64,000 bases of DNA from Candidatus Latescibacterota bacterium (GCA_965248355.1 OZ252098.1:2560001-2624000), one strand, 5' to 3'; numbered from the stretch's first letter, positions 15,896 to 44,304 are shown. The notes: a model not told the origin generated them from the letters alone. A program made the numbers and translations.

Positions 15896-17323
15896 TCACC
15901 AACCGAATTCTGAAGGGTTGCTTACCAGTTTGGACAAGAACTGCCGTGTTTGAGGCGCGAGCCGGTATCCGGAGTTCTTCGCCTGCCATGCGAGCAGTTC
16001 CGAGCTCACACCGAATCGCGAACGGAGTGACCGAGCGGCGTGATCTTCGTTGCCTTCATGATCCGAGAGCATCTGTCCGGCGATCTCGCGGGGTAACAGC
16101 AACTCGGCAGCGAAGGCGCGGGCTCGCTTCTCGACGTGCCTGCCGGTCCTGCCGCCGAGCACCTCAACGAGCGGCAATGAACTCGCGCGATCGACTAGGA
16201 GGTGACAAATCTCGTGCGCCAGCGTCGCTCTTCTTCGGGCAGAGCTCGCAGCGTGTCGAGCGTCCGAGTTCGGCAGCACGGCTGGACCGTGACTCGGTCC
16301 CCAGCACCCGATAGCGTCTATGTCCCCAAGCCCGAGGCCTGCGTCGATGAGCGGCACACTCCACGGCACAAGGATCTGCTCGGGATCGACGCGTCCACCG
16401 CGATGAACGATCTCCGGCTCTCCCCGCAGCCAACTGGCCAGCGTGTATCCCTGCGTGAACGGCGGCTCGTCATGCGTGTCAGCAATCACCGTCAGTGCGT
16501 CTTGGGAGGCGCGGTCCAGTTCTGACTCGTCGGACAACGGTACGCGCCTGAGAGCCTCAAGGATCGGTCTCAAAGTAGTCCGCGGCTGCGGTCCGACCAG
16601 TCGCGCCGCGGCCAAGAGTTCATCGGAGCGAGGCGTGGTCCAGTCACGTTCATCCTCGGAGTAGAAGATCGACTCGACCTCGGCCACAAGCTCCGAGGGG
16701 TACCCGGTGGCAGCTTCGATGACCTTCAGCCGGTTGTGGCTGTCTCGTGCATGCCACGACTGGACCGCCTCGCGCGACCGGGCGTCGGACACCCCATTGA
16801 GCCTCGACGCAATGCAGTCCCCGACTTTGCTCAAGACATCGAGTAGCTCGTGGAACGGGGCCCTCGCCGTCGCTGTCGTCGAGGCCGCCCAGCCGGAGTT
16901 GCCGTCTCTCACGATCCACAGCGGCGGCATCGCTGCTCCCTGCACGGCTTCTGCCAGGTCATGAGTCATGCGGTATGCCTCAAGCTGCTCACGCTCAAGA
17001 TCAGACCCCAGAGGTGAGCCCGACTCGACCGCCATCTCGGCGGCTGCGACCATCCGTGGGACGGTGTCCAGAGCGACGCCGAAGGGAGCCCCGTCCTCGA
17101 TGGCCAGGTACAGCCAAGACTCTGCGAGAAACTCCAGAAGCTCGATCCACGTCCACTCGAAGCCCGTGGCCTCGTCCGAGCCGTGCCAGACCGCCTTGCC
17201 CCGCAGGCTCACCCTAAGGCTTCCTCTAGTCGCGTTGGCCGCTGAAGTCCTCGAGCCTCCGGCTAGCCAGTCCAGCGCGAGTTCGATATCGCCGTCGGAT
17301 GACCGTGCTACCAGTTCATCCAT
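15896..17323 (-). CDS. ImmA/IrrE-family Zn metallopeptidase with long N-terminal domain
   Basis: RRRATLAHEICH (HExxH) and EKRARAFAAELLLP. Confidence 0.88.
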   Translation of the reverse strand: MDELVARSSDGDIELALDWLAGGSRTSAANATRGSLRVSLRGKAVWHGSDEATGFEWTWIELLEFLAESWLYLAIEDGAPFGVALDTVPRMVAAAEMAVESGSPLGSDLEREQLEAYRMTHDLAEAVQGAAMPPLWIVRDGNSGWAASTTATARAPFHELLDVLSKVGDCIASRLNGVSDARSREAVQSWHARDSHNRLKVIEAATGYPSELVAEVESIFYSEDERDWTTPRSDELLAAARLVGPQPRTTLRPILEALRRVPLSDESELDRASQDALTVIADTHDEPPFTQGYTLASWLRGEPEIVHRGGRVDPEQILVPWSVPLIDAGLGLGDIDAIGCWGPSHGPAVLPNSDARHAASSARRRATLAHEICHLLVDRASSLPLVEVLGGRTGRHVEKRARAFAAELLLPREIAGQMLSDHEGNEDHAARSLRSRFGVSSELLAWQAKNSGYRLAPQTRQFLSKLVSNPSEFGW

Positions 17324-17664
17324 CGCCGCACCTCCCTCTCGCATCCCTGCTGATTGGCCCGTTGCAGCAGTTCTTGCTTGATGGCCCTCGCGTTACCAGT
17401 GCGCGGGAATCCCGCTGGGTGCTCGGGAAAACCATGGTACGAGGCTCCTGGGTTGGTCGGCGCAGCACGATAGACGACACCGTCTCGGACCGCGTACAGC
17501 CGCTGAGGGTACGGCCGGTTCCAGAAGCGCCTGCGCGTCGGACAGGTTCACGTCGCGGGACACTTGCCGACACGGTTCGGCCCGACTTCGACGAACCCGG
17601 CATAGTCCTTGTTCCAGTGGTGCTTGCGCTTGGGGTTCTCATCCGGTTCGTAGAGCCACGGCAT
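17308..17664 (-). pseudogene. Small toxin-like ORF (not in ORF track), disrupted
   Basis: Manual translation MPWLYEPDENPKRKHHWNKD…GKCPAT*…PYPQRLYAVRDGVVYRAAPTNPGASYHGFP…W*; TGA at codon 39; overlaps ImmA start. Confidence 0.7.
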
Positions 17665-17684
17665 GTCAGTCTCCCGATCCGCCA

Positions 17685-18759
17685 TCAAGGCCAACGCCGC
17701 TCACCTGCCCACGTCACGCAGCCAACCGGCCTGCGGAACAACGATACGATCTTCCGAGCAATGGTGCGTCGGCTCGCACCGGGCCGACTGGACGACCTCC
17801 GGTCAGAAGTTGCCAGGAGGCGGGTACGCCCCGCAACGGCTGGGCGCCGCATCCTCACCCCTTTGTGTCCCAGGTCGGACTCCAGGCTCAGGGCCCGCGA
17901 TTTCTTCCACGGAAAAGCCGAGAGGAAGAGGACGTCCGGGGTCTTCGCCCGGCCCGCAGCCAGCTCCAGGGGCGGGAAGCGGCGCTTGTTCTCCGGCCGG
18001 GAGCGCAGCTCCCAGTCCAGCTCTCCCACCTCGAGCTGGCCGGCCACGCCGTCCCGGAATCCGCTCACCTCCTCGAAGCCCTCGAAAGGGGCTGCGGAAA
18101 TCGGTGGACCAGGGCCGCCCCGGCTCGAGAACCTGCGTCCGGTAGGCCCACTGCCACGACGCCCGCGGCGACTTGGAGCACCAGGGCCTCGACCATGTCC
18201 GTCACCCTCCACTCGGTGCTCACGGCGAGACCGAAGCCTGCTCGTTGACGCCGCCGGTCCAGGCGGAGGGGAAGGTCCCGCCTCCAGGTCGATCGCCACC
18301 CGGGGCCCCTCGATGTCGGGCACGTAGGTCCCCCAGATCACCCCCGGCGAGTACTTGCGGATCCCCTGCCGGAAGGTGATCGGCTGCGGCTCTCCAGCCT
18401 CGTTGACCGCCGTGTTCCGCCCGAAGACGGCGTTGACCCCTCTCCGCACGGTCAACCGCAGGGTCAGGCGCACCTGGCCGTACCCGGGCCGCGAGACCAT
18501 GGCCGGCATCCGCAAGGTCATCTCGATGGCCGCCTCTTCGGGCGTGTTTCTCACCACCCGAACCTGGCCGCGGCATGTTCCGTGTCGTCCCTGCCAGCCG
18601 GCGGGGACCGCCCCCGGGTCCCGGGGGGTCAGGGAGTTGGGCACCTCGAAGACGTCCCACTCGTTCTCCAGCACCACCCGGTCCGGCCGGCCGTCCCCGT
18701 CCGTGTCCTCCTCGAAAGGCCACGCCGAGTGCCAGGATCAGGGGCGGGATCGCTTTCAT
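17685..18759 (-). pseudogene. Decayed secreted-protein remnant
   Basis: Signal-like MKAIPPLILALGVA, then frame changes (DTDGDGRPDRVVLEN…); no continuous plausible ORF. Confidence 0.35.
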
Positions 18760-18830
18760 CGGTTCCATGGGGCATATACCTTCGACGCCGGTTCGACGCA
18801 GGTCCCATCTTCTCGGGGAAAGGGAAGCAA

Positions 18831-20000
18831 ATGAGCACCGACTCGCCATCCACCTACCGCGCCCCCGCCTTCGCCGACTCCAAGCCCGGGCTCGCCGCCC
18901 CGGGCGCCACGCCGGAGCGGCTGGCCCACCTGCAGGAGCACGGCTTCGTCATCATCACCGACTTCGTCGGCAACCCGTGGATTCCCGTCCTGCGCGAGGC
19001 CGGCCGCCGGATCACCGAGGCCTGCGCCCCGGAGATCGGCTACGACCGCATCGACTGCTCCCGGGGCTACGTGCACCGCGCCGCCGAGGACGATCCGTGG
19101 GCCATCCGCGGCCTCATCCACCCCGCCTTCGGGGAGCCGGACTTCGCCGCCTTCCAGGGCTCGCCCGACTTCCTGGGCTTCATCGAGTCCTGGTGCGACG
19201 GGCTGCAGCACGAGGACCTCGTGCTGGGGGGCCTGCTGCTGTGGTGCAACCCCCGCAAGCGCGAGAACAAGCTCGGCTGGCACCGGGACACGACCTGGTG
19301 GGGAACCGGCAAGCCCTACAGGGCCCAGGGCGGCGACGAGCCGGAGGGGCCCGAGGCCTACTCCGAGGAGGTGGAGAGGAAGCGCTGGAAGGAGATCGTG
19401 GCGGGCAATCTCAAGTCCGTCTCCGAGCGCACCGGCGTGAGCATGTTCCTGGCCCTGGTCGACGAGGAGTGCCACGAGCTGGTGCCCGGCTCCCACAACC
19501 GCTGGCGCACCCCCCTGGAGCACGACGTGCTGCTTCCCAAGGGGATGAAGGAGAAGGGGGTCCCCCACACCCCCAGCTGGAACGGCGAGGATCCCCTGCC
19601 CGGCCAGGTCGCCATCCGCCTCAAGGCCGGCGAGGCCCTCATCCGCAACGGGACCACCATCCACACCGGCCACACCCTCCCCGACCGCGAGCGCAACACC
19701 CTCTCCATCGGCTGGTCCAAGTGGGGCGGCCCCTTCACCGGCGAGCCGACCGCGGCCGACGCCCGCAGCGCCTGGCAGCTCGACCCCGCCGTGCGCGAGG
19801 CCCTGCCCCACGACTGGATGAAGACCGCCTGGGACCGCTGGGCCGAGACCCAGAGGCTCGGCGACTCCCTCGAGGACCGCTACGCCGGCTTCGACATCAA
19901 GGCCATCAAGTCCGGCCAAGTCGTCGGCTGGCGCGGCGAGCTGGAGCGCCAGGCGGCGGCGGCGGGCGAGGCCTGGCAGCCGTTCCAGACGGCGGCGTGA
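18831..20000 (+). CDS. PhyH-family Fe(II)/2OG dioxygenase
   Basis: EHGFVII, WHRD (HxD), VPGSH, distal IHTG. Confidence 0.82.
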   Translation: MSTDSPSTYRAPAFADSKPGLAAPGATPERLAHLQEHGFVIITDFVGNPWIPVLREAGRRITEACAPEIGYDRIDCSRGYVHRAAEDDPWAIRGLIHPAFGEPDFAAFQGSPDFLGFIESWCDGLQHEDLVLGGLLLWCNPRKRENKLGWHRDTTWWGTGKPYRAQGGDEPEGPEAYSEEVERKRWKEIVAGNLKSVSERTGVSMFLALVDEECHELVPGSHNRWRTPLEHDVLLPKGMKEKGVPHTPSWNGEDPLPGQVAIRLKAGEALIRNGTTIHTGHTLPDRERNTLSIGWSKWGGPFTGEPTAADARSAWQLDPAVREALPHDWMKTAWDRWAETQRLGDSLEDRYAGFDIKAIKSGQVVGWRGELERQAAAAGEAWQPFQTAA

Positions 20001-20006
20001 GGGAGC

Positions 20007-21710
20007 ATGAGTGAAACCGTCCCCTTCGGACGCGTCCTCGGCACCGAGCCTTCCACGCCGCTGGCCTTCTGGGTGGCCATAGACAAGGAACGGGTGATAC
20101 AGCTCGACGAGGTCGTCTCCCTCGAGAGGGAGCTGCCCGATTCCAGAGTCGTCCATATCTACGGCATCGTCACCGAGCTACAGGCAAAGCACGAGGGGGC
20201 GCGGTTCGACAGCGATGTGTTCCTGATCGAGGACGGAATCATCCCCGCCGAAGTCACGGAGATCGCCAAGGTCCAGGTCACCCGCTTCGAGCCCGAGTTC
20301 TTCATTCCCCCCCTGCCGGGCCAGATCGTCCGCAAGGCCAAGGGGAAAGAGCGCGACGAGGCCCTGTTCTTCGACGGCATGGTCAAACTGTTGCCCGCAG
20401 GCCTGTCGCGAGAGGACGACCCGGTCTACGCCAACTTCGAGTTCATCGACGGCACCCGCGGTGCCCATGTGAACATCAGCGGCGTCTCCGGCGTCGCCAC
20501 CAAGACGACCTACGCCACCTTCCTGCTCCACGGCATCTTCACCTCGAAAGTCATGGGCGGCGAGGCGGTGAACACCAAGGCCCTGATCTTCAACGTCAAG
20601 GGCGAGGACCTGATGTTCCTCGACCGAGCGAACCGGACTCTGAAGGAAGACCAGGCGAGACGCTACGCCTCCCTCGGCCTGGAGGCGTCGCACTTCCGCA
20701 GCGTCGAGTTCTGGGCGCCGCCGCGAAAGGGGGACAGGAACGCGGCCCCGGCCACGGGAAGCCGGCAGGGAGGGGTGACCTCCTACTTCTGGACGCTGCA
20801 CGAGTTCTGCGAAGAAGAGTTGCTCCCGTACCTGTTCACCGATCCCCAGGACGACCGGCAGCAGTACACCCTGATCGTTCACAACGTGACTTCCAGGCTG
20901 AAGAGCAAGGCCAAGCCACTCGGTGAAGGCGGAGTGCGAATCGAGGAGAGCAGTGCGAGGACCCTGGGCGAGTTGTTCGAGATCGTCATCGGCTACCTGG
21001 AGGATGACGCCACTTCCTCCGAGTGGGCCGGACGCGCCATCGGGGCCGGCACCATCGGTGCCTTCATCCGCCGGCTCTACGGCGCCCGTCCTCACGTGGA
21101 GCACCTGATCCGGGGCGACGTCCCGAACGCCGGCGCTCACAAGATCGAGCAGCAGCAGCAGGTCACGGTCGTGGACATCCACAACCTCAACGACCGGGCC
21201 AAGCGGTTCGTGGTGGGTGTAACCCTCAACAAGGTCTTCGAGGACAAGGAGCGCACCGGCCAGTCGCGCCCGCTTCTGTTCATCATGCTGGACGAGTTGA
21301 ACAAGTACGCCCCGAGGGAAGGGTCCAGCCCCATCAAGGAGATACTTCTGGACGTGGCCGAGCGCGGGCGTTCCCTCGGCATGATCCTGATCGGCGCCCA
21401 GCAGACCGCCAGCGAGGTCGAGCGGCGCATCATCGCCAATTCGTCGATCCGCGTCGTGGGCCGCCTCGACAGCGCCGAGGCCGGCCGCGACGAGTACGGA
21501 TTCCTGCCGGCGGAGCAGCGCCAGCGGGCGACCATCATCAAGCCGGGGACGATGATCCTGACGCAGCCCGAGATCCCCATTCCCCTGGTAATCGAGTTTC
21601 CCTTCCCCGCGTGGGCCACGCGTCCCGACGAGGCTCGGGATCCGCCATCCGCAGACGACGGCGGTCCGGATCCCTTCGAGGGCCTGGAGACGGGGAAGGC
21701 GGACTCTTGA
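20007..21710 (+). CDS. herA: HerA-like ATPase/helicase (FtsK/HerA superfamily)
   Basis: N-terminal HAS-barrel-like region, HVNISGVSGVATKT Walker A, LDELNK Walker B, ERGRSLG and AQQ motifs. Confidence 0.85.
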   Translation: MSETVPFGRVLGTEPSTPLAFWVAIDKERVIQLDEVVSLERELPDSRVVHIYGIVTELQAKHEGARFDSDVFLIEDGIIPAEVTEIAKVQVTRFEPEFFIPPLPGQIVRKAKGKERDEALFFDGMVKLLPAGLSREDDPVYANFEFIDGTRGAHVNISGVSGVATKTTYATFLLHGIFTSKVMGGEAVNTKALIFNVKGEDLMFLDRANRTLKEDQARRYASLGLEASHFRSVEFWAPPRKGDRNAAPATGSRQGGVTSYFWTLHEFCEEELLPYLFTDPQDDRQQYTLIVHNVTSRLKSKAKPLGEGGVRIEESSARTLGELFEIVIGYLEDDATSSEWAGRAIGAGTIGAFIRRLYGARPHVEHLIRGDVPNAGAHKIEQQQQVTVVDIHNLNDRAKRFVVGVTLNKVFEDKERTGQSRPLLFIMLDELNKYAPREGSSPIKEILLDVAERGRSLGMILIGAQQTASEVERRIIANSSIRVVGRLDSAEAGRDEYGFLPAEQRQRATIIKPGTMILTQPEIPIPLVIEFPFPAWATRPDEARDPPSADDGGPDPFEGLETGKADS

Positions 21711-22891
21711 GGATCCTCCACACCGCGGACTGGCACGTCGGCGCCACCCTGCGAGGGCGCAGCCGCGCCGACGAGCACCGGGAGGTCCTGGCCGAGATCG
21801 TGGCCATCGCGGAAGAGCGGGACGTGGATCTCGCGATCGTAGCCGGGGACCTGTTCCACCACGCCGCGCCGGGCCCCGAGTCCGAGCAGATCGTCTACGA
21901 GGCGCTGCTCAAGCTGGCCCGGGATGACCGGCAGGTCGTGCTGGTAGCCGGGAATCACGACAACCCCGCGCGCGTCGAGGCCGTCCGGCCGCTCCTCGGC
22001 ATGGCCGGCATCCACGCCGCCGGACACCCGCGCCGCCGGGATGAGGGCGGGATGGTGAAGATCGAGACCCGGAGCGGTGAGAGGGCGCACGCCGTGCTTC
22101 TGCCCTTCCTCTCCCAGCGCGGTATCGTGAAGGCGGACGACCTGATGTCGGGCGAGGCCGGCGACCACGTGCAGAAGTACGCCGAACGCATCCGGCGCAT
22201 CCTCTCTCACCTGTGTGAGGGTTTCGAGGATGACGCGGTCAACCTGGTAGTCTCCCACCTCACCGTCGTCGGAGGCAGGATGGGCGGCGGCGAGCGGGAA
22301 GCGCACACGATCTTCGACTACCACGTACCTCCCCAGGTCTTCCCGACGAATGCCCACTACACGGCGCTCGGACACCTTCACCGGGAGCAGAAAGTAGCGG
22401 GGGCTGATCGGATCCGGTACTGCGGCGCACCGATCCAGGTCGACTTCTCCGAGGAGCAGAACGATCCCTGTGTGCTGTTGGTCAAGGTGGAAGCCGGGGT
22501 GCCCGCCCGGGTGAAGGAGGAGAAGCTCCGCTCACCCAGGTCCCTTCGCACGCTGTCAGGAACGCGCGACGAACTGATGGAGCAGCTCGGATCCACGGGC
22601 GACGCGTATTTGCGGATTGTGATCGAGGAGAGGCCGTCCCCCGGGCTCGCGGACGAGATGCGGGAAGCCTTCCCGAACGCGGTGGACGTCCGGGTAGTGC
22701 ACGAAGCCGATGAGCCCGACGAAACGGACCCGCTCGACTTCGCCCAAGTCCGCAGGTCACCACGCGACCTGTTTGCGCGGTACCTGGAGCAAAAGGGCGT
22801 GGAGGGCGAGGAGTTGCTGAAGCTGTTCGACCGGCTGCTGGAGGAGCTTGAGGACTCGGACAACGACGACGCGGAGGGGGCGACCGATTAG
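21707..22891 (+). CDS. sbcD: SbcD/Mre11 metallophosphoesterase nuclease
   Basis: TTG start overlapping herA stop; HTADWH, AGDLF, GNHD, LGHLH motifs. Confidence 0.93.
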   Translation: MRILHTADWHVGATLRGRSRADEHREVLAEIVAIAEERDVDLAIVAGDLFHHAAPGPESEQIVYEALLKLARDDRQVVLVAGNHDNPARVEAVRPLLGMAGIHAAGHPRRRDEGGMVKIETRSGERAHAVLLPFLSQRGIVKADDLMSGEAGDHVQKYAERIRRILSHLCEGFEDDAVNLVVSHLTVVGGRMGGGEREAHTIFDYHVPPQVFPTNAHYTALGHLHREQKVAGADRIRYCGAPIQVDFSEEQNDPCVLLVKVEAGVPARVKEEKLRSPRSLRTLSGTRDELMEQLGSTGDAYLRIVIEERPSPGLADEMREAFPNAVDVRVVHEADEPDETDPLDFAQVRRSPRDLFARYLEQKGVEGEELLKLFDRLLEELEDSDNDDAEGATD

Positions 22892-22894
22892 CGC

Positions 22895-25297
22895 ATGCGT
22901 CCGATAGAGCTTGAGATGGAGGGGTTCACCTCCTTCAGAGACCGCACGGTAGTCGACTTCGAAGATGTGGACCTGTTCGTGATCACCGGTCCGACGGGAT
23001 CAGGGAAGTCGAGCGTCATCGACGCCATGATCTTCGCCCTCTACGGATCGATCCCCCGGCTCGACGACCGCCGGGCGGTGGCGCCGGTTATCAGCAGGGG
23101 AATGCTCCAGGCGCGCGTACGGCTCGACTTCATGGTCGGCGGGAAGCGCTACACCGCTGTACGGGTGGTCCGGGCAACGAGGGATGGAGCCACCACGCGC
23201 GAGGCGACCTTGGAAGATGACGCCGGCAACACGCTGACGGCCAGCGACCCCAAGGAATTGACCAAGAGGGTGGAGGAGATCCTCGGCCTGTCCTTCGACC
23301 ACTTTACCAAGTCCGTAGTCCTGCCCCAGGGCGACTTCGCGGAACTCCTGCACGAGCGGCCCGGGGAGAGACAGAAGTTGCTCCAGCGGCTGCTGGGCAC
23401 GGAGCTCTACGGCCGGCTGGCGAGCCTCGCGGGCGCGAGAAGCAAGGAGGCCCAATTCTCCGCTCAACTCCTCGAGAGCGACATAGCACAGGGCCGTGCC
23501 GCTGGAATCACTGCCGAGGCTTTGACGGCGGCGCACCAGAGGGCGGAGGACCTCGAGCGTCTGGTGCTGCGGATAAAGGAGCAACAGCCGGAAATCAAAC
23601 GGCTCGAGAAGAAGCTGGATCTGGCGGCGCAAGAAACGACAAAGGTCCAGGAACGGCTCAGGGTGCTGAGCGAAATCCGCGTACCCGATGGCATCTCCGA
23701 ACTGGCCGAGAGGATAGGGGAGGGGCGCCGCGCTCTCCATCAGGCGAGAGAGGCTCATGACAAGTCCGTGGAGGAGCGACGTCGTATCCAGGAGGACTTG
23801 GAAAAGCTGCGCAAACTAGACGACCTGAGGGACTGGCTGCGCCGCTACGAAGAGTTGGCCAAAGCTCGGAAGAAGGAGGGTGAGGCGTCGTCCCGGCTGA
23901 AAGAAGCGCAGACGGCTCTGGAGATTGTCCAGGCGAAGGCGGAGAAGGCAGGGAAGGAGTTCGAGGATGCCCAAGAGGCCGTGAGCTCGATGGAGGATGA
24001 ACATAGGGCCTATCACCTTGCCGCGGGGCTGACGGCGGGAGACCAATGCCCCGTCTGCCGTCAGCGAGTGGCCGAGCCGCCGTCGCTGCAGGCACCCCGG
24101 GAGATGCAGGAGGTGCACGAGGCCCTCGAAAGGGTGAGGGAAAGCCGGCAGCTTGCTGACGCCAAGCTCGATGATGCCCAGTACGCAGTAGCCGCGGAGG
24201 AGCGCAGCTTCAAGGAGGCGGAAGAGCAGGTCAGGGCTTTGGAGGAGGAGTTGAAAGATGCGGATCCCCGCGAGGACCTTGAAGCTGCCTTGGAAGAAGT
24301 TCTGACAGCCGACCAACTGTTGCTGGAGGCGAACAGAAGGGAGAAGGAAGCCGGCGTCCGGTTGCGCAAGGCCGAGAGGGTTGTCAAGGCGCTGGAAGAG
24401 GATGAGAGGACGGCGTGGGAGGAGTACGACAGGCAAAGAGACCTGCTCGCAGGGATGCAGCCGCCCCCCGCCCAACGCGAGGAACTATGGGTGGCGTGGA
24501 GTGATTTGGTCCGCTGGGTGAGGGAGCAGGAGCGAGAGCAACGCGACCTCCTCGAAGAGGGAAGGAAGGAGCGGGAGGAGACGGAGTCCGCCCTCGCGGA
24601 GATCCGGCAATCGATCGCCGGGTGGTGTGGCGAGACCGGTGTCACCGTGGCCGACGGTGAGGAGCCGCTGACGGCGTGCCGCGTCGAGATGGGCAGGCAG
24701 GCAGGGGAGATCGAACGGATCGAGCACTCCCTGCAGGAGATTGAGCGGAAGCAGGGAGAGTTGAAGCGGCTGCAGCAGGAGGGCAGGGTCGCGGGGGAAC
24801 TCGCACGGCACCTCGACGCGCGCAACTTCGAGCGCTGGCTGATGGCACAGGTGTTGAAGCAGTTCTCCGCTGGGGCCAGCAGGGAACTGCTCAAGTTGTC
24901 GAGGGGTTCCTACTCCCTGGATCTGGACGGGAACAACAACTTCGTCGTGGTGGATCACCGCAACGCCGACGAGCGCGGTCCCGTGAAGACGCTCTCCGGG
25001 GGCGAGACCTTCCAGGCCTCCCTGTCGCTGGCCCTTGCCCTCTCGGAGCATCTCACGAACTTGGCGGTGGGCGGCGCGGCCAGGCTGGAGGCCCTCTTCC
25101 TGGACGAGGGATTCGGCACCCTGGACACGGATACGGACACCCTGGACGCTGTCATATCGGCCCTCGAGGAACTCGCTTCATACGGGAAGATGGTCGGAAT
25201 CGTGACCCACGTGCAGGAGCTGGCCGAGCGCATCCCCGTTCGCTACGAGGTGACCAAGGAAGGGAACCGGTCGTCCATAAGGAGGGTCGAGGCGTGA
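22895..25297 (+). CDS. sbcC: SbcC/Rad50 SMC-like ATPase
   Basis: GPTGSGKS, LPQGDF Q-loop, coiled coil with CPVC zinc hook, LSGGE, LDEGFG. Confidence 0.93.
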   Translation: MRPIELEMEGFTSFRDRTVVDFEDVDLFVITGPTGSGKSSVIDAMIFALYGSIPRLDDRRAVAPVISRGMLQARVRLDFMVGGKRYTAVRVVRATRDGATTREATLEDDAGNTLTASDPKELTKRVEEILGLSFDHFTKSVVLPQGDFAELLHERPGERQKLLQRLLGTELYGRLASLAGARSKEAQFSAQLLESDIAQGRAAGITAEALTAAHQRAEDLERLVLRIKEQQPEIKRLEKKLDLAAQETTKVQERLRVLSEIRVPDGISELAERIGEGRRALHQAREAHDKSVEERRRIQEDLEKLRKLDDLRDWLRRYEELAKARKKEGEASSRLKEAQTALEIVQAKAEKAGKEFEDAQEAVSSMEDEHRAYHLAAGLTAGDQCPVCRQRVAEPPSLQAPREMQEVHEALERVRESRQLADAKLDDAQYAVAAEERSFKEAEEQVRALEEELKDADPREDLEAALEEVLTADQLLLEANRREKEAGVRLRKAERVVKALEEDERTAWEEYDRQRDLLAGMQPPPAQREELWVAWSDLVRWVREQEREQRDLLEEGRKEREETESALAEIRQSIAGWCGETGVTVADGEEPLTACRVEMGRQAGEIERIEHSLQEIERKQGELKRLQQEGRVAGELARHLDARNFERWLMAQVLKQFSAGASRELLKLSRGSYSLDLDGNNNFVVVDHRNADERGPVKTLSGGETFQASLSLALALSEHLTNLAVGGAARLEALFLDEGFGTLDTDTDTLDAVISALEELASYGKMVGIVTHVQELAERIPVRYEVTKEGNRSSIRRVEA

Positions 25298-26241
25298 AGA
25301 TCGCCGTCGAGTCCTGGGCCCCGGAGTACGGCTCCCTGGTCGATTCTGGTGAGATGGAGGAGGCGGAGGCTCCAACGGACGTGGAGGTCGAGATGCCGGC
25401 CGGCGAGTGGCGGCCCCTGTCGCCCTCCCCGGAGACCCCGAAGCCCGCCGCCATCCACTTCGTGGACGGCGTGCGGCGCATCGACGCCCGTGTGTGGATC
25501 ACACACGACGACGGGATGACCCGGTTGGGGATCTGCGCGTCCTACGCTGCGGGCGTGGTGCGATGTGGGCAGCGTGCAGAGGTTATCGACGCCCAAGTGC
25601 GCCGGCAGCTGGTGTCGACGGCGGGCGCCCCCGCCCTCGTCACGAGGGCCGGCCGGTTCGAGCCCTGCGCCGCCGCAAAGGATGCCATCGACGAGTTGCT
25701 CATCGCATTGCAGGGACAGCTTGGCCAGCTGGAGGTCCAGGTGGCCGCCCGCAACGTCCCGGACGATGCCCTCCTCGTGCTCGATGGCCCGGTGAGCCGC
25801 GGGCGCCACCAGATCCCCGGCGCCCTCGGATACGTGAAGACGCACCAGGTCCGGTATCTTCCGGCCAGTCTCTCGGAGGTGGTCTCAGGACTGAAGCCGG
25901 GAGAGAGGACCCCGATCTTCCTGACCCAGACGACGTGGAGCCGGTACTCGTGGTACCTGAGGCTGCCCGGCGGCGAAGGGCATCCCTGGTCGGGCGTGGT
26001 CCGATGCGAGGCATCGGCCGAGGGAGAGGTGGGGAAGTTCCGGAGGCTGGCCGATCAGTCCGCGGCGGTCCTGCCCGCCTATGCCTCGGAGCGCCACAAG
26101 GAGCCGCGGGCCCCGCAGAACCTGTACCCGATCTCAACGCTCGAGCGGGAGCTGCGGCGGCGGCTCGGCGACGTGGCCTACGTGCACCGGGAATTGAGGC
26201 GTAGCGCCCTCCCCTTCACTGGAGAGCCGCCCTATGGATGA
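25294..26241 (+). CDS. nurA: NurA-like nuclease
   Basis: FVDGVRR, LDGP, GYVKTH, SWYLRL, PRAPQNLYP..LE..L motifs; operon context. Confidence 0.75.
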   Translation: MKIAVESWAPEYGSLVDSGEMEEAEAPTDVEVEMPAGEWRPLSPSPETPKPAAIHFVDGVRRIDARVWITHDDGMTRLGICASYAAGVVRCGQRAEVIDAQVRRQLVSTAGAPALVTRAGRFEPCAAAKDAIDELLIALQGQLGQLEVQVAARNVPDDALLVLDGPVSRGRHQIPGALGYVKTHQVRYLPASLSEVVSGLKPGERTPIFLTQTTWSRYSWYLRLPGGEGHPWSGVVRCEASAEGEVGKFRRLADQSAAVLPAYASERHKEPRAPQNLYPISTLERELRRRLGDVAYVHRELRRSALPFTGEPPYG

Positions 26242-27084
26242 CATACCGCACGGAGCACAGGCATCTGAGGAAACGCCGGCCAGCGCTTGGGAACGCGATG
26301 CGGCCAAGCGTGCTCTGGATGACCTGTTCAGTATCGCTTGCAGGTACAAGGCAACCAAGGCATACAAGGAATTGGTGGATTTCGTGGCCAGATTCCGGTT
26401 CTACTCACCGTTCAACGCCCTGCTGATCCACGTTCAGAAACCGGGAGCGACTTTCGTTGCTCCGGCCCATCGGTGGCGTGACAAGTACAAGAGAGAAGTA
26501 ATGCCTGGTGCACAGCCGATCGTGATTCTGCAGCCGATGGGACCGGTGATGTTCGTCTTTGACGTCAGCCAGACCGAACCGACAGAGGATGCTCCTCGGC
26601 TGCCGGCAGAAGGCACCAATCCGTTCCTGACGAGCGGTGGAACCATCGGCTGTGGACTCCCGCGGGCTATCGAGAATGGAAAACGGGACGGAGTCCGCAC
26701 AAGCCGTGTCGCCCTCGGCTCTCAAGGGGCCGGTTTAATCAGTGTCTACTCAGGGAATGGAATCTCACAGGAGTTCCAATCTGGATACGACAGCGACAGA
26801 GTGCCGATCTATGTCAAAGTTCCGGTCAGATACGATCTCGTGGTCAATAAGGAACACGGCCCGGAGGAACAGTATGTCACCATCGCTCACGAACTCGCAC
26901 ACCTGTATTGTGGGCACCTTGGCTCGCCTAGTCCCAAGTGGTGGCCCGATCGACGCGGTTTGGCAAAGCCGAAGTTCCCTCCATCAGTCTTGAGCTCGTC
27001 ATGAAGACCGCCGGACTCATCGAGTCCATGACGAAACGGTCGTTGAAGCCGCGGCGAGACGAGTCCTCGCAGGGGCGTAGGTGA
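26234..27084 (+). pseudogene. ArdC-like N-terminal domain plus zincin (HExxH) protein with internal deletion/frameshift
   Basis: YSPFNALLI..Q.PGATFVA..W and AHELAHLYCGH; plausible C-terminus (ISLELVMKTAGLIESM…*) lies in another frame ending 27084. Confidence 0.7.
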
Positions 27085-36263: not shown

Positions 36264-36285
36264 CGTTCGGTCGATCCTTCCTTCT

Positions 36286-37662: not shown

Positions 37663-37779
37663 CCCTGATCCGGCCTCATGCCGGCGTCCGTATCGCAGGT
37701 GTGCACACGTCGTTAGGATGCCCTGCCGTGGGGTGACGTTCCCTGGGGCGGCTCGGCCGCCGCCTGCTCCACGGAGATC

Positions 37780-37888: not shown

Positions 37889-37991
37889 TCCCTTCTCCTT
37901 TCGGGCCGGTGGGTAATCTCGCCCCGCCGCCGGCCGCGCCGCCAGTGAGGTATCTGGCGGCCCCCCTCCGGCGCCGCTACCATTGCCGGCC

Positions 37992-39047: not shown

Positions 39048-39652
39048 GCCGGCGGCACCGGGAGGTCTCCGGCCTGGAGGAGTCCGGCTTCGAGGTCCGC
39101 AGCCGCGACCTCGACATCCCCCTCGAAGAGTACGCCCGCCGGCCCAAGTTCCCCGTCTACCTGGTGCTGGACAACCTGCGCTCCGCCTTCAACGTGGGCG
39201 CCCTCTTCCGCGTCGCCGACACGGCCCGGCTGGCCGGGCTGCTCACCTGCGGCTGCACCGCCCATCCGCCCCATCCCCGCCTGGACAAGACCGCCCTCGG
39301 CAGCCTCGACTACGTGGCCAGCGAGCACTTCGCCACGACCGAGGAGGCCCTGCAGCGGCTGCGGGACGGCGGCGTTCCGGTGTGGGCCCTGGAGACGACG
39401 TCGCGCAGCCGCCACTACGTCCGCGCCAGCTACCCGCGCCCGGTGGCCCTGGTCCTCGGCAACGAGGCCCTCGGGGTGCAGCCTTCGGTGCTGGACAGCT
39501 GCGACGAGCTGGTGGAGGTGCCCGTCTTCGGCTTCAAGAACTCCCTCAACGTCGCCGCCGCGGCGGCCGTCGTGGTCTACGAGATCCTGCGCCAGTGGGG
39601 CTACGAGCCCGGGGCGGGGGCGGCGGCCCTGCGCCTCAACAGGTCGAGGTAG
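39044..39652 (+). CDS. SpoU/TrmH-family RNA methyltransferase
   Basis: LDNLRSAFNVG..FR, LGNEALG, SLNVA; start uncertain. Confidence 0.9.
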   Translation: MSRRHREVSGLEESGFEVRSRDLDIPLEEYARRPKFPVYLVLDNLRSAFNVGALFRVADTARLAGLLTCGCTAHPPHPRLDKTALGSLDYVASEHFATTEEALQRLRDGGVPVWALETTSRSRHYVRASYPRPVALVLGNEALGVQPSVLDSCDELVEVPVFGFKNSLNVAAAAAVVVYEILRQWGYEPGAGAAALRLNRSR

Positions 39653-40860
39653 CGGCGGGCGAGTTCGTGGCTGCTGCCGCCCTCGCGGCTGTCGCCGTGG
39701 TCGGGCAGGTCGAGGACGCGCCGGAAGCGGGCCCGGGCGGCTTCCGGATCGCCCAGCTCTTGCAAGGCGATGCCCAGATAGAGGTTGGCCAGCGGCACGT
39801 ACCCTCGGACCGCCTGGGCCTCCCCCTTTTCTCCGAGCCTGTAGGAGAGGCTGTCGGCGGCGGCCAGGGCGCGCACCGCCGCCTGGCGCCGGTGCTGGCG
39901 CTGGGCGTTGCGGCCGATGTAGTAGAGGGCCTCGACGTGGCCTCGCGTGTGGTATCCCGGATCGCCGGCCCGGCTGCGGGCCTCGACCTCCTCGTAGGTC
40001 GCCGTGCCCTCGCGCCAGCGGTCGACGCCGACGAGGGCCCGCCCCACATAGCGGTGGAACAGGGCGTTGGCCGGGTAGCGCCGGTGGAGCTGCTCGAGAT
40101 AGGGGAGGGCGGCGGCGTCGTCCTCCTCGAAGACGCGGTGGATCTGGGCCAGGAAGTAGAGGGCCTCGGCGCGGGCGTAGCGGCCCTCGCGGCCCACCTG
40201 CCGCAGCTGCTCCAGGCCGAGGTCGCGGTCGCCGTCGGGGAGGAACCACATGACCGGCCGCACCACCGGGTGGCGCTTCGGGATCACCTCGGCGAAGTAG
40301 TTGTAGATCCCCTGGCCGAAGAGGATGTCCTTGTTCTCCGGCTCCAGGCGGCGGCTCTTCTCCAGCAGCGGCAGGGAGAGGAGCCCGTCGTGGGCGGCCT
40401 TCAGGAACTGGCGCCGGTCGCCGCGCAGCCGTCCCCGGAAGCCGATGGCGCCGCCCTTGAAGAGGATGGCGTCGAAGTCGTCGGGGTCGGCCTCCAGGCG
40501 CCGGTCGCAGACGTCGATGCAGCGCTGCAGCAGGGCGTAGAACGCCTCGTCGTGGGAGCGGTCCTCCAGGTCGACGAGGACCCGCCACCACGTGACCGAG
40601 GCCAGGAAGAAGTGGCCGAGGGGATGGTCGGGGTCGGCGGCGATGATGCCCTCGAAGTAGCGGTCGGCCTCGTCGAAGCGCAGGCTGTAGATGAGGTCGA
40701 TGCCGGCCTGGATGCGCGGATCTGCGGGACCGCGCAGGGTGAAGGGCGCGTCCGGGGCCGGCTGGGCCTCGGCCACGGTCCGGGGCGCCGGCAGGAAGAG
40801 GACCGCCCCCAGGGCCAGGGCCACGACGGTCCGGGCGCGGCGGATTGCGGCCCTCCGCAT
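39601..40860 (-). CDS. Secreted TPR-repeat protein
   Basis: Signal peptide and helical TPR-like repeats; convergent overlap with the methyltransferase gene. Confidence 0.8.
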   Translation of the reverse strand: MRRAAIRRARTVVALALGAVLFLPAPRTVAEAQPAPDAPFTLRGPADPRIQAGIDLIYSLRFDEADRYFEGIIAADPDHPLGHFFLASVTWWRVLVDLEDRSHDEAFYALLQRCIDVCDRRLEADPDDFDAILFKGGAIGFRGRLRGDRRQFLKAAHDGLLSLPLLEKSRRLEPENKDILFGQGIYNYFAEVIPKRHPVVRPVMWFLPDGDRDLGLEQLRQVGREGRYARAEALYFLAQIHRVFEEDDAAALPYLEQLHRRYPANALFHRYVGRALVGVDRWREGTATYEEVEARSRAGDPGYHTRGHVEALYYIGRNAQRQHRRQAAVRALAAADSLSYRLGEKGEAQAVRGYVPLANLYLGIALQELGDPEAARARFRRVLDLPDHGDSREGGSSHELARRYLDLLRRRAAAPAPGS

Positions 40861-40959
40861 CAGTCCGCTTGTTATGCCGGTTCGGCTCACGGGCGGCGGA
40901 ACGCCCGGGGCCGGCGGGAGTCCATGGAGGCGGGAAACATCATGGAGAAAGAGTAAGAC

Positions 40960-42351
40960 ATGGCTCCGATGAGCATCGACCACGACGTCATCGTCATCGG
41001 CGGCGGCTCGGCCGGGTACGCGGCGGCGCGCACGGCCCGCGACGAGGGCGCCGACGTGGCCATCGTCGACCCCGGACCGCTGGGGGGCCTGTGCATCCTG
41101 CGCGGCTGCATGCCGAGCAAGACCGTGCTGCGCTCCTCGGACGTGATGTCCCTCATCCGCCGGGCCCCGGAGTTCGGCCTGTCGGCGCCGGAGCCGGAAG
41201 CCGACCTGGAAGCGATCATCGACCGCAAGGACCGCCTGATCCGGGAGTTCGCCGGGTACCGCGTCGAGCAGTTGCGCGGCTTCAGCCTCTACGAGGCGCC
41301 GGCGCGCTTCACCGGCCCCGGCGAGATCGAGGTCGCCGGCCGCCGCCTGCGGGCCCGCAGCTTCGTGATCGCCACCGGGTCCGCCATCAGCGGCCCCCCG
41401 ATCCCCGGCCTGGAGGAGGCGGGCTTCATCACCTCCGACGACGCTCTCGACCTGCGCGACCTGCCCGCGTCGATGGTCGTCCTCGGCGGCGGCCCCATCG
41501 CCTGCGAGCTGGCCCAGTTCTACTGCCGCCTCGGCGTGGCCACGGTGATGATCCAGCGCAGCGGGCACATCCTCTCCCAGACCGACGAGGACCTGGCCCG
41601 CCCCGTGGAGGCCCGCTTCCGCGAGGAGGGGATGGAGCTCTACACCGGCACGAAGCTGCACCGCCTCGAGCGCGCCAACGGCGTCGCCACGGCCCACTTC
41701 AGCCACGGGGGGGAGGAACGGACCGCTTCGGGCGAGGTCGTCTTCCAGGCCCTGGGCCGGCGGCCGAACACCGATGGGCTCGGGCTGGACGCCGCCGGCG
41801 TGCAGGTGGACCGCCGCGTCCTGGTCGACGACGCCATGCGCACGAGCCAGCCCCACATCTTCGCCGCCGGCGACGTCAACGGCCTCCACGAGATCGTCCA
41901 CATCGCCGTGCTCCAGGGCGAGGCGGCGGGCTACAACGCCGTCCACCTGCAGGCCGAGCCGCGGCGCGTCGACTCCCGCCTCGACATGGCCGTCACCTTC
42001 ACCGACCCCCCGGTGGCCACCCTCGGCCGACTGGAGAGGCAGTGCCGGGCCGAGGGCGTCCCCCATCTCGCGGCCAGCTACCCCTTCGACGACCACGGCA
42101 AGTCCATGACCCTGGGCGAGCTGCACGGCCACGCCAAGATCCTGTGCGATCCCGCCACCGGCGAGATCCTCGGCGCCGGCATCGTCGGACCGGAGGCCGG
42201 CGAGCTGATCCACGAGCTGGCCGCGGTCATGTACTTCCGCGGCACCGTGCGCCAACTGATGGAGATCCCCCACTACCACCCGACCCTGGCCGAGATCCTC
42301 ACGTACCCCGCCGAGGAGCTGTCCGGACAACTCCAGGGAGCCCAAGGATGA
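40960..42351 (+). CDS. Class I pyridine nucleotide-disulfide oxidoreductase (dihydrolipoamide dehydrogenase-like)
   Basis: GGGSAG, GGLCILRGCMPSK redox disulfide, HPTLAE. Confidence 0.9.
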   Translation: MAPMSIDHDVIVIGGGSAGYAAARTARDEGADVAIVDPGPLGGLCILRGCMPSKTVLRSSDVMSLIRRAPEFGLSAPEPEADLEAIIDRKDRLIREFAGYRVEQLRGFSLYEAPARFTGPGEIEVAGRRLRARSFVIATGSAISGPPIPGLEEAGFITSDDALDLRDLPASMVVLGGGPIACELAQFYCRLGVATVMIQRSGHILSQTDEDLARPVEARFREEGMELYTGTKLHRLERANGVATAHFSHGGEERTASGEVVFQALGRRPNTDGLGLDAAGVQVDRRVLVDDAMRTSQPHIFAAGDVNGLHEIVHIAVLQGEAAGYNAVHLQAEPRRVDSRLDMAVTFTDPPVATLGRLERQCRAEGVPHLAASYPFDDHGKSMTLGELHGHAKILCDPATGEILGAGIVGPEAGELIHELAAVMYFRGTVRQLMEIPHYHPTLAEILTYPAEELSGQLQGAQG

Positions 42352-42564
42352 AGATCCGCGGAGGACATGGACCGGGCCATCGCCTTCTACCGGGACAGGA
42401 GATGCGGTGGGCGGAGTTCGCCGCCGGCAACACGACCCTGGTCGTCAACGATCCGGGGGGCCTCGGTGTGGGCATCGAGCCCCATCTGCCATCTCGCCTG
42501 CATCGAGGACCCGGACGGCAACCACGTCTGGCTCCACCAGCGCAAGGACGGCACCTTCGGCTGA
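42348..42564 (+). pseudogene. VOC/glyoxalase remnant
   Basis: DMDRAIAFYRD…WAEF…(frame change) IEDPDGNHVWLHQ. Confidence 0.65.
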
Positions 42565-42616
42565 TCCATTGAAGGCACGCCCTTGGCCCTATTTCGTATA
42601 TTAGGCGAGGATTCAA

Positions 42617-43039
42617 ATGGCGAAAACCCGACCACGTCATCAACTCACCCACAACGAGCTTAGAGCATTGGCTTCCAAAGTCCGCTATGAGGGAAGCGGC
42701 GAGCACAAGGTAGAGCGTTGGTGGGGAGGCCTGCCTGAAGGGAGGCAGATGCCTGGAGGGGGAGTAGGAAGGCCTTGGAAGGAGAGCACTTCGATCTGTC
42801 CTCTCGTTGACCTATCTGGAAAAAAGCGAGCTACGAAGATGCTCCGGAAGGCGATCATCAATCGTCAATTCGAGTTCCTGGAGAGAGATAGGGACTTCCC
42901 TTCAAAGGTCTGGTACGAGGATGGGGAAGGCACACTTTGGAGTGGAAGTTGCTTCAACGGAGAAAGAGGAGAGTATAAGGGATGGCCCCTGACGCCTTCG
43001 GAGAAGCAGGCGTTCAAGAGGAAGATGAGAATCCCTTGA
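42617..43039 (+). CDS. Small basic toxin-like hypothetical protein
   Basis: YEGSGEHK…CP…FPSKVW…YKGWP; similar pattern to the 17308-17664 remnant. Confidence 0.75.
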   Translation: MAKTRPRHQLTHNELRALASKVRYEGSGEHKVERWWGGLPEGRQMPGGGVGRPWKESTSICPLVDLSGKKRATKMLRKAIINRQFEFLERDRDFPSKVWYEDGEGTLWSGSCFNGERGEYKGWPLTPSEKQAFKRKMRIP

Positions 43040-44304
43040 GGTTCGAGAAGGAGTGGGTTGATTGCGGCCCCAATAAGTCCAAAGAGGAATTAGCCACTCT
43101 CTGCTATCTCCAGATTTGGCTTGGGAGCAACAACACATGCAGGTTCCTTGATGCAGAGGGAAGATATGAGTGGCTGCTTATGCCAGCTGTCAACCTTGCT
43201 GAAGGCCTCGCATTGGATTGGTGGAGCATCTTCGGGAAAAGGGACTACGAGCACAGCCTACTACTACTTCACAGACGTGGCTACCTAGTCCCGGATCTTG
43301 TTCTTGATTTTGATGGATCCCGATTCAGGATCTCCAACAGAGGAGGATCTTGGCCGGAGGAAGTGCATTTCTATCCATGTGATCCAGTGTACCTTTCTGA
43401 AGAAGAGTTCAGATCGACCCTTTCTGGTTTCATTGAAGACGTCGCGTCTCGTCTTCGGAGCAAAGGAATAGAGGACTCCACAACAGCTTCCAGGTGGAGC
43501 AAGATAGAGGAGTCTCTAGGAGACCTGACACAAACCCTCTTCTGCGAAGCAGCGGGAGCTCTTGAGCTTGATCCCTATTTCATCTCCGAGGCTGATGAGC
43601 GATTCATCGAAGGCATGGTCGAGCTGTTCCGCGAGAGGGAACCGTTGATCGAGTTCCTTTCGGGCCTCTCGGATCATTCTTCGAATCGAAGGCGGATCAA
43701 GGACTGGATTGGCCAGATGGATGCCCGATCCAGGGAAGAGTCAGAGCTACCCGGTCTTCGAGAGATTGCTGAACAAGTGGGAGCCTATTTGGGTGGTTGT
43801 GCTCCAGATCGACCTTGGGCAATCGGGTATCGTGCGGCCAAAGAGTTCCGAAGCCTTTTCAGGGGATCTACGGCTTTCTATAAGGAAAAATCGGGTTTCT
43901 CTTTCCAAGATTTGTCCAGCCGCCTGGGTTCTCCTGAGTTTACGGCTGTGGATTCAGACCCTCTTCCCGGCATTTTCGCTATGGGCTCTTCCGGAGAGGG
44001 AACCCCCCGGGTCCATTTGCGCAAACGGGCCTCTCAGGAGGACCAGAATTTCGACTTTGCCAGAGCTGTGGGTTACGTGGCCTGCTTTCCTGACTCTTCA
44101 AGATTCGTGATCAATAACCTGCATCGTTCAAACCGGCAGGCAGTTACTCGAGCCTTTGCCGCGGAGTTGCTGGCTCCGGGAGAGATCGTCTCGGGCATGC
44201 ATGAGGAAGGCCATGATCCCTATCTCATTGCCGATCGTCTCGGCGTGCCAACCCAGGTCGTACAGCACCAGTTGGAGAACAGCCGCCGGATAGCTGCGGT
44301 TTAG
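43036..44304 (+). CDS. ImmA/IrrE-like protein lacking HExxH
   Basis: RAFAAELLAP and LGVPTQVVQHQLEN tail; FDFARAVG in place of the HExxH; TTG start overlapping upstream TGA. Confidence 0.8.
   Translation: MRFEKEWVDCGPNKSKEELATLCYLQIWLGSNNTCRFLDAEGRYEWLLMPAVNLAEGLALDWWSIFGKRDYEHSLLLLHRRGYLVPDLVLDFDGSRFRISNRGGSWPEEVHFYPCDPVYLSEEEFRSTLSGFIEDVASRLRSKGIEDSTTASRWSKIEESLGDLTQTLFCEAAGALELDPYFISEADERFIEGMVELFREREPLIEFLSGLSDHSSNRRRIKDWIGQMDARSREESELPGLREIAEQVGAYLGGCAPDRPWAIGYRAAKEFRSLFRGSTAFYKEKSGFSFQDLSSRLGSPEFTAVDSDPLPGIFAMGSSGEGTPRVHLRKRASQEDQNFDFARAVGYVACFPDSSRFVINNLHRSNRQAVTRAFAAELLAPGEIVSGMHEEGHDPYLIADRLGVPTQVVQHQLENSRRIAAV

Follow-up and report, generated by a model that had tools for sequence, protein, structure and literature searches.

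A stretch of 64,000 nucleotides (nt) from a Candidatus Latescibacterota bacterium (GCA_965248355.1, OZ252098.1:2560001-2624000), referred to here as the window, holds at two places a small gene, or what is left of one, that overlaps the start of a larger gene with an ImmA/IrrE-like (Peptidase_M78) domain. A preliminary description of these loci, copy 1 at 15896-17664 and copy 2 at 42617-44304, proposed that they are an undescribed toxin-antitoxin (TA) or anti-phage system, which raises the questions of whether the two are related, what each gene would do, and whether such a system already has a name. The same kind of two-gene module is indeed found at both loci, with overlapping open reading frames (ORFs), an M78 domain in each large protein and homologous large proteins. 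In our judgement, the two loci probably belong to one family of translationally coupled TA or abortive-defence modules of two genes, closest in design to RosmerTA, and would act in the way proposed below.

Composition and relatedness of the two modules

The components of the two copies, with protein lengths in amino acids (aa), are as follows.

42617..43039, plus strand: intact small gene of copy 2 (140 aa), coding for a candidate toxin that belongs to the clade-2 small family
42982..44304, plus strand: large gene of copy 2 (440 aa), with an N-terminal domain specific to the family (~aa 1-335) and, at the C-terminus, an M78-like domain without zinc motif
43999..44274, plus strand: Peptidase_M78-like domain of copy 2 (aa 340-431); Pfam PF06114, E 7.3e-8
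44059..44076, plus strand: ARAVGY at the HExxH position of M78 peptidases; hhalign column match to HEICH of copy 1
15896..17344, minus strand: intact large gene of copy 1 (482 aa), with an N-terminal domain (~aa 1-340) and an M78 peptidase domain containing HEICH
15989..16249, minus strand: Peptidase_M78 domain of copy 1 (aa 366-452); Pfam PF06114, E 8.2e-11; IrrE 3dte, E 2.2e-5 with the family profile
16202..16216, minus strand: HEICH zinc-binding motif of the copy 1 large protein
17308..17664, minus strand: copy 1 small gene, read as a clade-1 small-family pseudogene whose frame is divided into two stop-to-stop pieces
17548..17550, minus strand: in-frame TGA terminating the 5′ piece of the small gene of copy 1

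The relatedness of the large proteins is visible mainly at the level of family profiles. BLASTP linked only their C-terminal 50 residues (E 3e-5), and hhalign comparison of the two families (61 vs 32 sequences) gave Prob 99.5% and E 3.8e-23 over 385 columns, joining residues 16-435 to 17-459, which bears out the end-to-end alignment that had been drawn by eye. The match was retained when the peptidase part was left out (residues 1-335 vs 1-360; Prob 98.35%, E 1.1e-14) and when the compared region was shortened to residues 1-270 vs 1-290 (E 1.7e-9); as a control for the N-terminal match, all ten of ten column shuffles fell at E 0.097-0.82. In addition, when the hidden Markov model (HMM) of each large family was compared with the 1069 six-frame segments of the window, the other copy was the sole match (E 3.2e-6 and 4.1e-10). 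Judged by these profile comparisons, the two large proteins are homologous from end to end, and their N-terminal ~330 aa are homologous also when taken alone. No relative of this N-terminal region was found in Pfam or among PDB sequences, and an Atlas search returned nothing at 0.9. The family profile matched only IrrE (3dte, E 2.2e-5) and CapP (7t5t, E 0.0079) among PDB sequences, in both cases over the M78 part.

A tree of 100 large proteins is divided into two deep clades with an SH-aLRT of 100 on both sides, and this division coincides with the state of the zinc site. Of 40 clade-1 large ORFs, 33 have HExxH and the other seven are fragmentary; the motif occurs in none of 61 clade-2 large proteins, which have [FL]ARA[VI]GD or a similar string at the aligned position and ARAVGY in the window. 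The large proteins had been described as ImmA/IrrE-like; the M78 domain is present in both and HEICH in copy 1, but the ARAVGY of copy 2 had been missed. The label 'ImmA/IrrE metallo-endopeptidase' carried by clade-2 proteins is probably wrong as to activity. A HEEGH string does occur in the copy 2 large protein (44200-44214), ~45 residues past the lost zinc motif; it is unconserved, being found only in the window and its four closest relatives (5/61 clade-2 sequences), and is probably fortuitous.

The small proteins are more distant from each other. BLASTP between the two small ORFs gave nothing (best E 2.1), and a first hhalign comparison of the two families (9 vs 38 sequences) gave E 0.004 with Prob 8.5%. 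With larger profiles (8 vs 157 sequences), E became 5.8e-5 and Prob 65.6% over 92 co-linear columns; none of 200 column shuffles reached that E value (best 0.0042), and the reversed alignment gave E 0.17. The alignment contains the same ordered motifs that had been picked out by eye in the preliminary description. The clade-1 HMM ranks the copy 2 small ORF first among the non-self segments of the same six-frame set, at E 0.17. Furthermore, an 80-aa protein encoded upstream of a large-family member on a Massilia plasmid forms a bridge between the families, matching the clade-1 profile at E 1.6e-6 and the clade-2 profile at E 0.011, for which the best background values were 0.83 and 0.58, respectively. 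The order of predicted secondary structure in the aligned core (helix, three strands, helix) is also the same in the models of both. With moderate confidence, we conclude that the small proteins are homologous in their core. HMMER reported a second, weaker stretch between the clade-1 C-terminal helices (aa ~101-129, …RRWMNW) and the clade-2 N-terminal helix with RWW (aa ~4-40), which could be a permutation, an internal repeat or chance; circular permutation was considered, but the larger profile comparison prefers the co-linear alignment.

Among 157 clade-1 small-protein sequences, C35 is found in 157, P91 in 154, Y5 and H15 in 152 each, H88 in 150, K14 in 145 and K34 in 138, and the conserved H15, H88, K14, K34 and C35 are compatible with many chemistries. 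The nine relatives of the clade-2 family keep the pattern Y.GS.EHK..RWWGGLP ... CP ... FP..VW ... G.YKGWP.

The two copies differ in the state of the small gene, which the preliminary description had taken to be open in both. This holds for copy 2 (42617..43039). In copy 1, the frame consists of the stop-to-stop pieces 17548..17700 and 17308..17547, split by the TGA at 17548-17550, and the gene has suffered two deletions. An HMM of intact relatives matches both pieces (E 1.1e-33 and 9.8e-19), and 11 codons are missing in comparison with intact 129-aa homologues (P0011 and 13 others); at the DNA level, comparison with the intact gene of the closely related locus L001 reveals a 1-nt deletion and a net 32-nt deletion. 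About 13 codons (NLSDAQALLEPAVP) are readable only in another frame, 17393..17638. The copy 1 motif string given earlier was thus stitched from two frames, its 'A..LL helix' coming from the second, and the ORF is absent from the ORF track because the gene is not open. Recoding of the TGA, as for selenocysteine, was considered and rejected: intact relatives have ordinary codons at this place, and the window gene is also short by 33 nt. From its sequence, then, the copy 1 small gene is a pseudogene and should be annotated as such, and copy 1 is an orphan intact large gene. The overlap of the large gene with the end of this small gene is 37 nt for a start at the ATG at 17344, or 16 nt for a start at the ATG at 17323.

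In copy 2, the small and large ORFs overlap by 58 nt, and GAGGA lies 5-6 nt ahead of the small-gene ATG; a promoter scan upstream of this copy found no site. Its reading frames indicate that copy 2 is intact and presumably functional.

Pairing, predicted complex and proposed roles

The pairing of the two genes was examined in a scan of one genome per species with the clade-1 small-family profile, which gave 41 loci, and clade-2 gene contexts were seen on plasmid records only (four records). The clade-1 small family has 98 relatives in a word-indexed search and 306 clusters (50% identity) at E <= 0.001 among 1.84 billion representatives, and its loci occur in Actinomycetota, Planctomycetota, Myxococcota, Pseudomonadota and sponge-associated metagenome-assembled genomes (MAGs). 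For clade 2, the indexed search gave nine matches for the small family and 68 for the large partner. The neighbourhood survey that had been called for found consistent adjacency: the large gene lies directly downstream on the same strand in 40 of the 41 clade-1 loci, the exception (L024) running into a contig end. In clade 2, the small gene lies directly upstream of the large gene on both plasmids that hold one, Agrobacterium pAt2 and Tistrella pTM2, in the latter of which it is unannotated. Clade-1 pairs are also carried by the plasmids Thiodictyon pTs417 and Agrobacterium SJ003 pAt.

The two genes also appear to be bound to each other in evolution. Pairwise distances of the small and large proteins are correlated with r 0.95 over 26 loci (0/2000 permutations), suggesting, as far as sequence distances tell, that the pair evolves as a unit. 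The ratio of nonsynonymous to synonymous substitution rates (dN/dS) of the small gene has a median of 0.15 over 58 of 66 pairs from 12 loci, eight pairs having been dropped for a dS out of range; by this measure the small gene is under purifying selection. Both genes are intact in 27 of the 41 loci and both are broken in 6, while a broken small gene stands beside an intact large gene in 5, the window being a sixth case, and an intact small gene beside a broken large gene in 3; these counts come mostly from MAGs and may hold assembly errors. In one MAG locus (L018), the 5′ half of the small gene was lost in a different way, the counterpart of window 17525-18730 being missing, and the large gene is intact.

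In some relatives, the slot upstream of the large gene is taken by another gene. On a Rhizobium etli plasmid, the gene upstream of a basal clade-2 large protein encodes TumE (PF20126, E 9.1e-7), and TumE toxins are reported to arrest the growth of E. coli and to be neutralised by their partners (PMC10584680). This large protein has a fused N-terminal winged helix-turn-helix (wHTH; PF25212, E 7.3e-10; ArsR HTH_5, E 2e-5), as has another family member, P0313. In Azospirillum, an unrelated 262-aa gene occupies the upstream position.

A physical association of the two proteins is predicted for the cognate intact pair of locus L001 (small gene 6001-6387, large gene 6354-7802), whose large protein is 91% identical to that of window copy 1. 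Folded with family alignments, this pair reached an ipSAE of 0.85 (runs 0.84, 0.85 and 0.86), compared with 0.01 for the best of three controls; among reference pairs, a value of 0.85 was attained in 116 of 157 cases for solved complexes and in 2 of 215 cases for mismatched pairs, counts that hold only roughly for a prediction made with our own alignments. The runs agree in >= 95% of contacts, and the predicted local distance difference test (pLDDT) of the partners is >= 87. Recall of a known structure is an unlikely source of the model because no like complex has been solved. All confident contacts of the large chain fall within residues 35-219 of the N-terminal domain, a zone that includes the W53/W66/G138 region, which is conserved and common to both clades. 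Contacts of the small chain include residues 14-15, 27-33, 77-83 and 89-91, and thereby the conserved K14/H15 and G89-P91. The model supports a small protein bound through the N-terminal domain of the large protein, in keeping with the earlier suggestion that this domain controls the small protein.

The fold of the small protein gives less direct guidance. The clade-1 model is confident (pLDDT 90.1; predicted template modelling score, pTM, 0.85), with the order beta-beta-alpha-beta-beta-beta-beta-alpha-alpha, and Foldseek found no match to it at E <= 0.001 in the PDB (best 0.69) or BFVD (best 0.1). The clade-2 model is weak (pLDDT 63.3; best PDB Foldseek E 0.38). The window small ORFs match no Pfam family at E <= 1 and none in NCBIfam, PADLOC or PHROGs, and a small-family profile picks up only spurious tetratricopeptide-repeat (TPR) and ribosomal rows among PDB sequences. 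The ribonuclease fold of the barnase/EndoU/colicin/RelE (BECR) type that had been expected for the small ORF did not emerge: RelE, HigB and CdiA-CT rows have template modelling (TM) scores of 0.2-0.6 and a probability <= 0.35, and no barnase, EndoU, colicin or RelE fold stands out. The Ntox50/DUF6972 assignment (PF15542, PF22319) was also rejected, with an Atlas feature score of 0.77-0.78 that lies below the level of anything more than a lead, and with no Pfam HMM support. A clade-1 small protein of the Thiodictyon plasmid (L046, 3094-3495) weakly matches the C-terminal 65 positions of the PADLOC model NsnC (E 1.2e-4), a match seen in none of five other small proteins scanned, and in locus L029 an NsnB/AriA-like ATPase flanks the module; on these sequence matches, the small-protein core may recur in another candidate defence system.

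In the mechanism that we propose, the upstream small gene would provide the effector, a candidate toxin of a new alpha+beta family in which Tyr, Lys-His, Cys-Pro and Y[HK]G[FWY]P positions are conserved, and the downstream large protein would be its neutraliser and probably a sensor. The family-specific N-terminal domain of ~330 aa would wrap the small protein, with the C-terminal ImmA/IrrE (M78) module as a switch. Proteolysis would probably be part of release or regulation in clade 1 (copy 1), where HExxH is kept, while in clade 2 (copy 2), where the zinc motif is replaced throughout, neutralisation would take place by binding alone, and the M78 fold would serve as a scaffold. Toxicity, neutralisation, the trigger and phage defence are what we infer here, on a background of homologous components, conserved adjacency, purifying selection on the small gene, the division by HExxH, exchange of partners and the predicted complex.

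Several observations weigh against this mechanism. The small proteins have no match to PADLOC models, and no known toxin or enzyme fold is matched by their structure. The evidence for their homology is modest, the larger profiles giving Prob 65.6% and the first E of 0.004 being no better than the best shuffle (0.0042), and few polar residues are common to the two small clades, H88 of clade 1 being K in clade 2. The complex was predicted for a relative, L001, and for neither window pair, and its calibration is only rough. Neither large protein has a match in 50,697 phage records. Decay of the pair is weakly asymmetric, the small gene alone being broken in five loci and the window vs three loci for the large gene alone, which is too weak an asymmetry to serve as evidence of toxicity; moreover, the three loci with an intact small gene and a broken large gene speak against the mechanism because an active toxin should not outlive its antitoxin.

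The same three loci fit the alternative that the pair is a regulatory switch, in which the small protein would be harmless and serve the ImmA-like partner as a ligand, adaptor or substrate, much as ImmR serves ImmA and DdrO serves IrrE, and the pair would control the expression or activity of other genes on a mobile element or island. It is as anti-repressor proteases that M78 proteins are best known (Makarova 2009; PMC10440598), the small protein has no recognisable toxic domain and some relatives carry a fused wHTH, but we regard this alternative as unlikely: neither window protein has a detected DNA-binding domain, clade 2 is without the zinc motif and so would cleave no substrate, a validated toxin takes the small-gene slot in the Rhizobium etli relative, and the predicted interface lies on the N-terminal domain rather than in the peptidase cleft. 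That TumE partner, a toxin, likewise makes it difficult to reverse the roles, with the large protein as the effector, a protease or otherwise, and the small one as an inhibitor or immunity protein acting on it. If such an inhibitor were strictly required, an intact large gene could not stand without an intact small gene, as it does in the window and five loci; clade-2 large proteins have no catalytic motif, and ImmA-domain proteins are confirmed antitoxins in RosmerTA (PMC10440598). Against these points stand the tight binding predicted for the small protein and the listing of COG2856 as a predicted toxin (Makarova 2009), and the probability of reversed roles appears very low to us.

It could also be argued that the two small ORFs are unrelated and merely occupy the same slot beside a promiscuous partner, with motifs that arose by convergence or chance. 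Partner swapping is demonstrable in the family, BLASTP found nothing, the first hhalign gave Prob 8.5%, and HMM-to-sequence comparison gave E 0.013-0.17 for the window copy; nevertheless, the larger profiles (E 5.8e-5 over 92 co-linear columns, with 0/200 shuffles as good), the Massilia protein that bridges both profiles, the rank of the copy 2 ORF as top non-self match of the clade-1 profile among the 1069 segments and the identical order of predicted secondary structure in the core render unrelatedness rather improbable. The preferred reading remains a small effector neutralised by its large partner.

Beyond it, we put forward tentatively a wider and less secure proposal. The N-terminal ~330 aa of the large protein could be a new hub antitoxin or sensor domain that clasps and silences several unrelated toxins, from the two related small families and their 80-aa core-only form to TumE and the 262-aa protein, with an M78 trigger that is active or dead depending on the clade; the small proteins could represent a toxin fold without a solved or viral counterpart; and copy 2 could be a working, uncatalogued, peptidase-dead Rosmer-like defence. 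ImmA-type zinc-peptidase antitoxins are a hub of the TA and defence network, for which infection sensing and toxin release are not understood. Sister clades that have in common an N-terminal domain predicted to bind the candidate toxin, one with the zinc site and one without it, form a natural experiment by which binding and proteolysis could be told apart. The analysis also adds a small-protein family that is uncharacterised and fairly widespread, with a confident predicted fold that has no structural match.

Surroundings of the two modules

Copy 2 begins at the point of a drop in G+C content, after a 65-aa ORF (42367-42561) without a family, and its G+C is 53-54% compared with 68% for the window; a search for repeats around this island gave nothing convincing. 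On its other side, the module adjoins a 197-aa ORF without a family, followed by a Type II N6/N4 methylase (MTase_II, E 4.2e-61). This ORF (44301-44894), convergent with copy 2 and directly beside the methylase gene (44967-45932), belongs to no family of Pfam or PADLOC and is a candidate for a restriction endonuclease gene.

Copy 1 lies in a stretch of lower G+C at the edge of an accessory region. Mutator-family transposase genes are found at 6427-7698 and 9409-10662, with a Y2_Tnp fragment at 11895-12302, where G+C is 0.53-0.65. Directly downstream of copy 1 are genes for a DSP-PTPase phosphatase (PF22785/PF22784; 15295-15846) and an ADP-ribosylglycohydrolase (PF03747, E 7.9e-67; 14477-15298), which overlap by 4 nt. 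They were considered as parts of the system and rejected, as homologues occur in only 3 of the 41 loci (L004, L014 and L016), where they are encoded on the opposite strand; the two genes make up a separate module of their own. A 330-aa ORF (17685-18677; third-position G+C 0.80) lies immediately upstream of the broken small gene; it has no Pfam or PADLOC family, and its stretch is absent from L018 and different in L001.

Together with a PhyH-like gene (18582-20000), the copy 1 module has 92-95% DNA identity to MAGs labelled Latescibacterota and Gemmatimonadaceae (window 15885-20003; L001 4299-7816; L018 4674-7635), an identity that, as a comparison of sequences, points to recent transfer or a binning error. 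The same Latescibacterota contig also codes for a copy 2 large protein, 81% identical, and many further clade-1 loci come from sponge-associated Acidimicrobiia MAGs.

A cluster of conflict genes (20007-27004) is located near copy 1, its two ATPase genes within the same stretch of lower G+C. It comprises a HerA-like ATPase (20007-21710), an LmuB-like SMC ATPase (22895-25297; PADLOC LmuB, E 5.7e-33), an ORF of 315 aa without a family (25294-26241) and one of 256 aa that carries an M78 motif (26234-27004). From its gene content, the cluster may be a Lamassu-like system that includes a peptidase. The last ORF matches PF06114 at E 5.4e-6 and the C-terminal part of PADLOC RT_III-A at E 8.2e-10; as a third copy of the module it was rejected, since it matches neither large-family HMM at E <= 1. 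Both copies do sit among conflict genes, as had been stated, with the methylase beside copy 2 and the LmuB- and HerA-like ATPases near copy 1, but the phosphatase and ADP-ribosylhydrolase named in that statement are not conserved partners, having homologues in only the three loci given above. In the wider family, PADLOC models (E <= 1e-8) match 17 of 119 flanking ORFs, in 15 of 39 loci, a count that has no background control; the 119 are the two nearest ORFs per side, 19 of the 138 picked having been dropped for size.

Comparison with known systems

The known systems that come into question differ from the modules in the partner, the domain or the catalytic state. In the ImmA/ImmR and IrrE/DdrO pairs, the same peptidase domain is found, as is an association with toxins and mobile elements, and COG2856-Xre fusions have been linked to RelE and PIN toxins, COG2856 itself being listed as a predicted toxin (Makarova 2009). 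However, the window modules have no XRE or other helix-turn-helix (HTH) protein inside or adjoining them, the partner is a small non-HTH protein, and one clade is probably catalytically dead. Library scans found no HTH family in the window large proteins or in the flanking ORFs 17688-18677, 42367-42561 and 44304-44894, which agrees with the earlier remark that no HTH gene adjoins either copy. The NCBIfam spr1629 model scores 36.6 bits, compared with a cut-off of 335.

The TumE-TumA pair is approached by the Rhizobium etli locus, where TumE occupies the small-gene slot upstream of a large-family member with a wHTH (PF25212/ArsR). In contrast, the window small ORFs have no PF20126 match, none of 38 clade-1 relatives matches TumE at E <= 10, and the TumA antitoxins described in PMC10584680 are much smaller than the large protein. 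The likeness to Panacea (PanA), as that system is outlined in PMC10440598, is conceptual: one partner domain is combined with several unrelated upstream genes, which in the large family are two related small families, an 80-aa core-only form, TumE and the 262-aa protein. The domain is a different one, and only the concept is shared, with no sequence relation claimed. For the small protein, the only compact structural resemblance is to PDB 5T87, the CdiA-CT/CdiI complex with the CdiA-CT toxin of Cupriavidus taiwanensis (PMC9111745). The clade-1 model superimposes on 5t87_G with a TM score (target) of 0.60 and a root-mean-square deviation (rmsd) of 3.1 over 70 columns, and the clade-2 model also touches 5t87_F, but the Foldseek E of 2.1-2.2 and probability of 0.14-0.35 are not significant. 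The modelled resemblance should be taken as a lead, not a match.

The closest design is that of RosmerTA, an anti-phage TA system of a variable toxin, RmrT, and a zinc-peptidase antitoxin, RmrA (PMC10440598; Millman preprint). According to the NetFlax work on RosmerTA, node D25 is a hub ImmA antitoxin with many toxins, 58% of them encoded first, and often with a small N-terminal HTH, and ImmA-domain proteins have been confirmed as antitoxins (PMC10440598). The window modules resemble it in having two adjacent, co-oriented genes, a variable small toxin-like protein with a larger M78 partner, the toxin-first order and a defence-island setting, and 13 PADLOC RmrA models match the copy 1 large protein (best E 2.7e-10). 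These matches are confined, however, to aa 341-473 of copy 1 and to positions 181-308 of the 394 in the model; RmrA's N-terminal half, which often has an HTH, is unmatched, and an unrelated ~330-aa domain stands in its place. The copy 2 large protein matches no RmrA model and is without HExxH, and the small proteins of the modules match no PADLOC model. With respect to the HExxH of RosmerTA, copy 1 has HEICH, and copy 2 has the signature of the fold (E 7.3e-8) but ARAVGY at that position. Neither copy gives a full-length match to an RmrA profile, and Pfam finds no HTH in them. A canonical RmrA-like gene does occur beside a decayed module in L014 (7075-8271), where 12 RmrA models match at near full length (best E 4.9e-23). 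A comparison of six RefSeq accessions from plasmid members with two NetFlax supplementary files found none of them there, the interactive unpruned network lying outside this comparison. The word 'undescribed' in the preliminary description is therefore apt insofar as there is no match to a full-length RmrA or small-protein model, but too strong for the architecture, which is of the RosmerTA class, and for the copy 1 peptidase domain, which RmrA models do match. Collectively, these profile comparisons suggest that the modules form an unnamed Rosmer-like branch, which has the design of RosmerTA and which, in both copies, falls outside its full-length membership.

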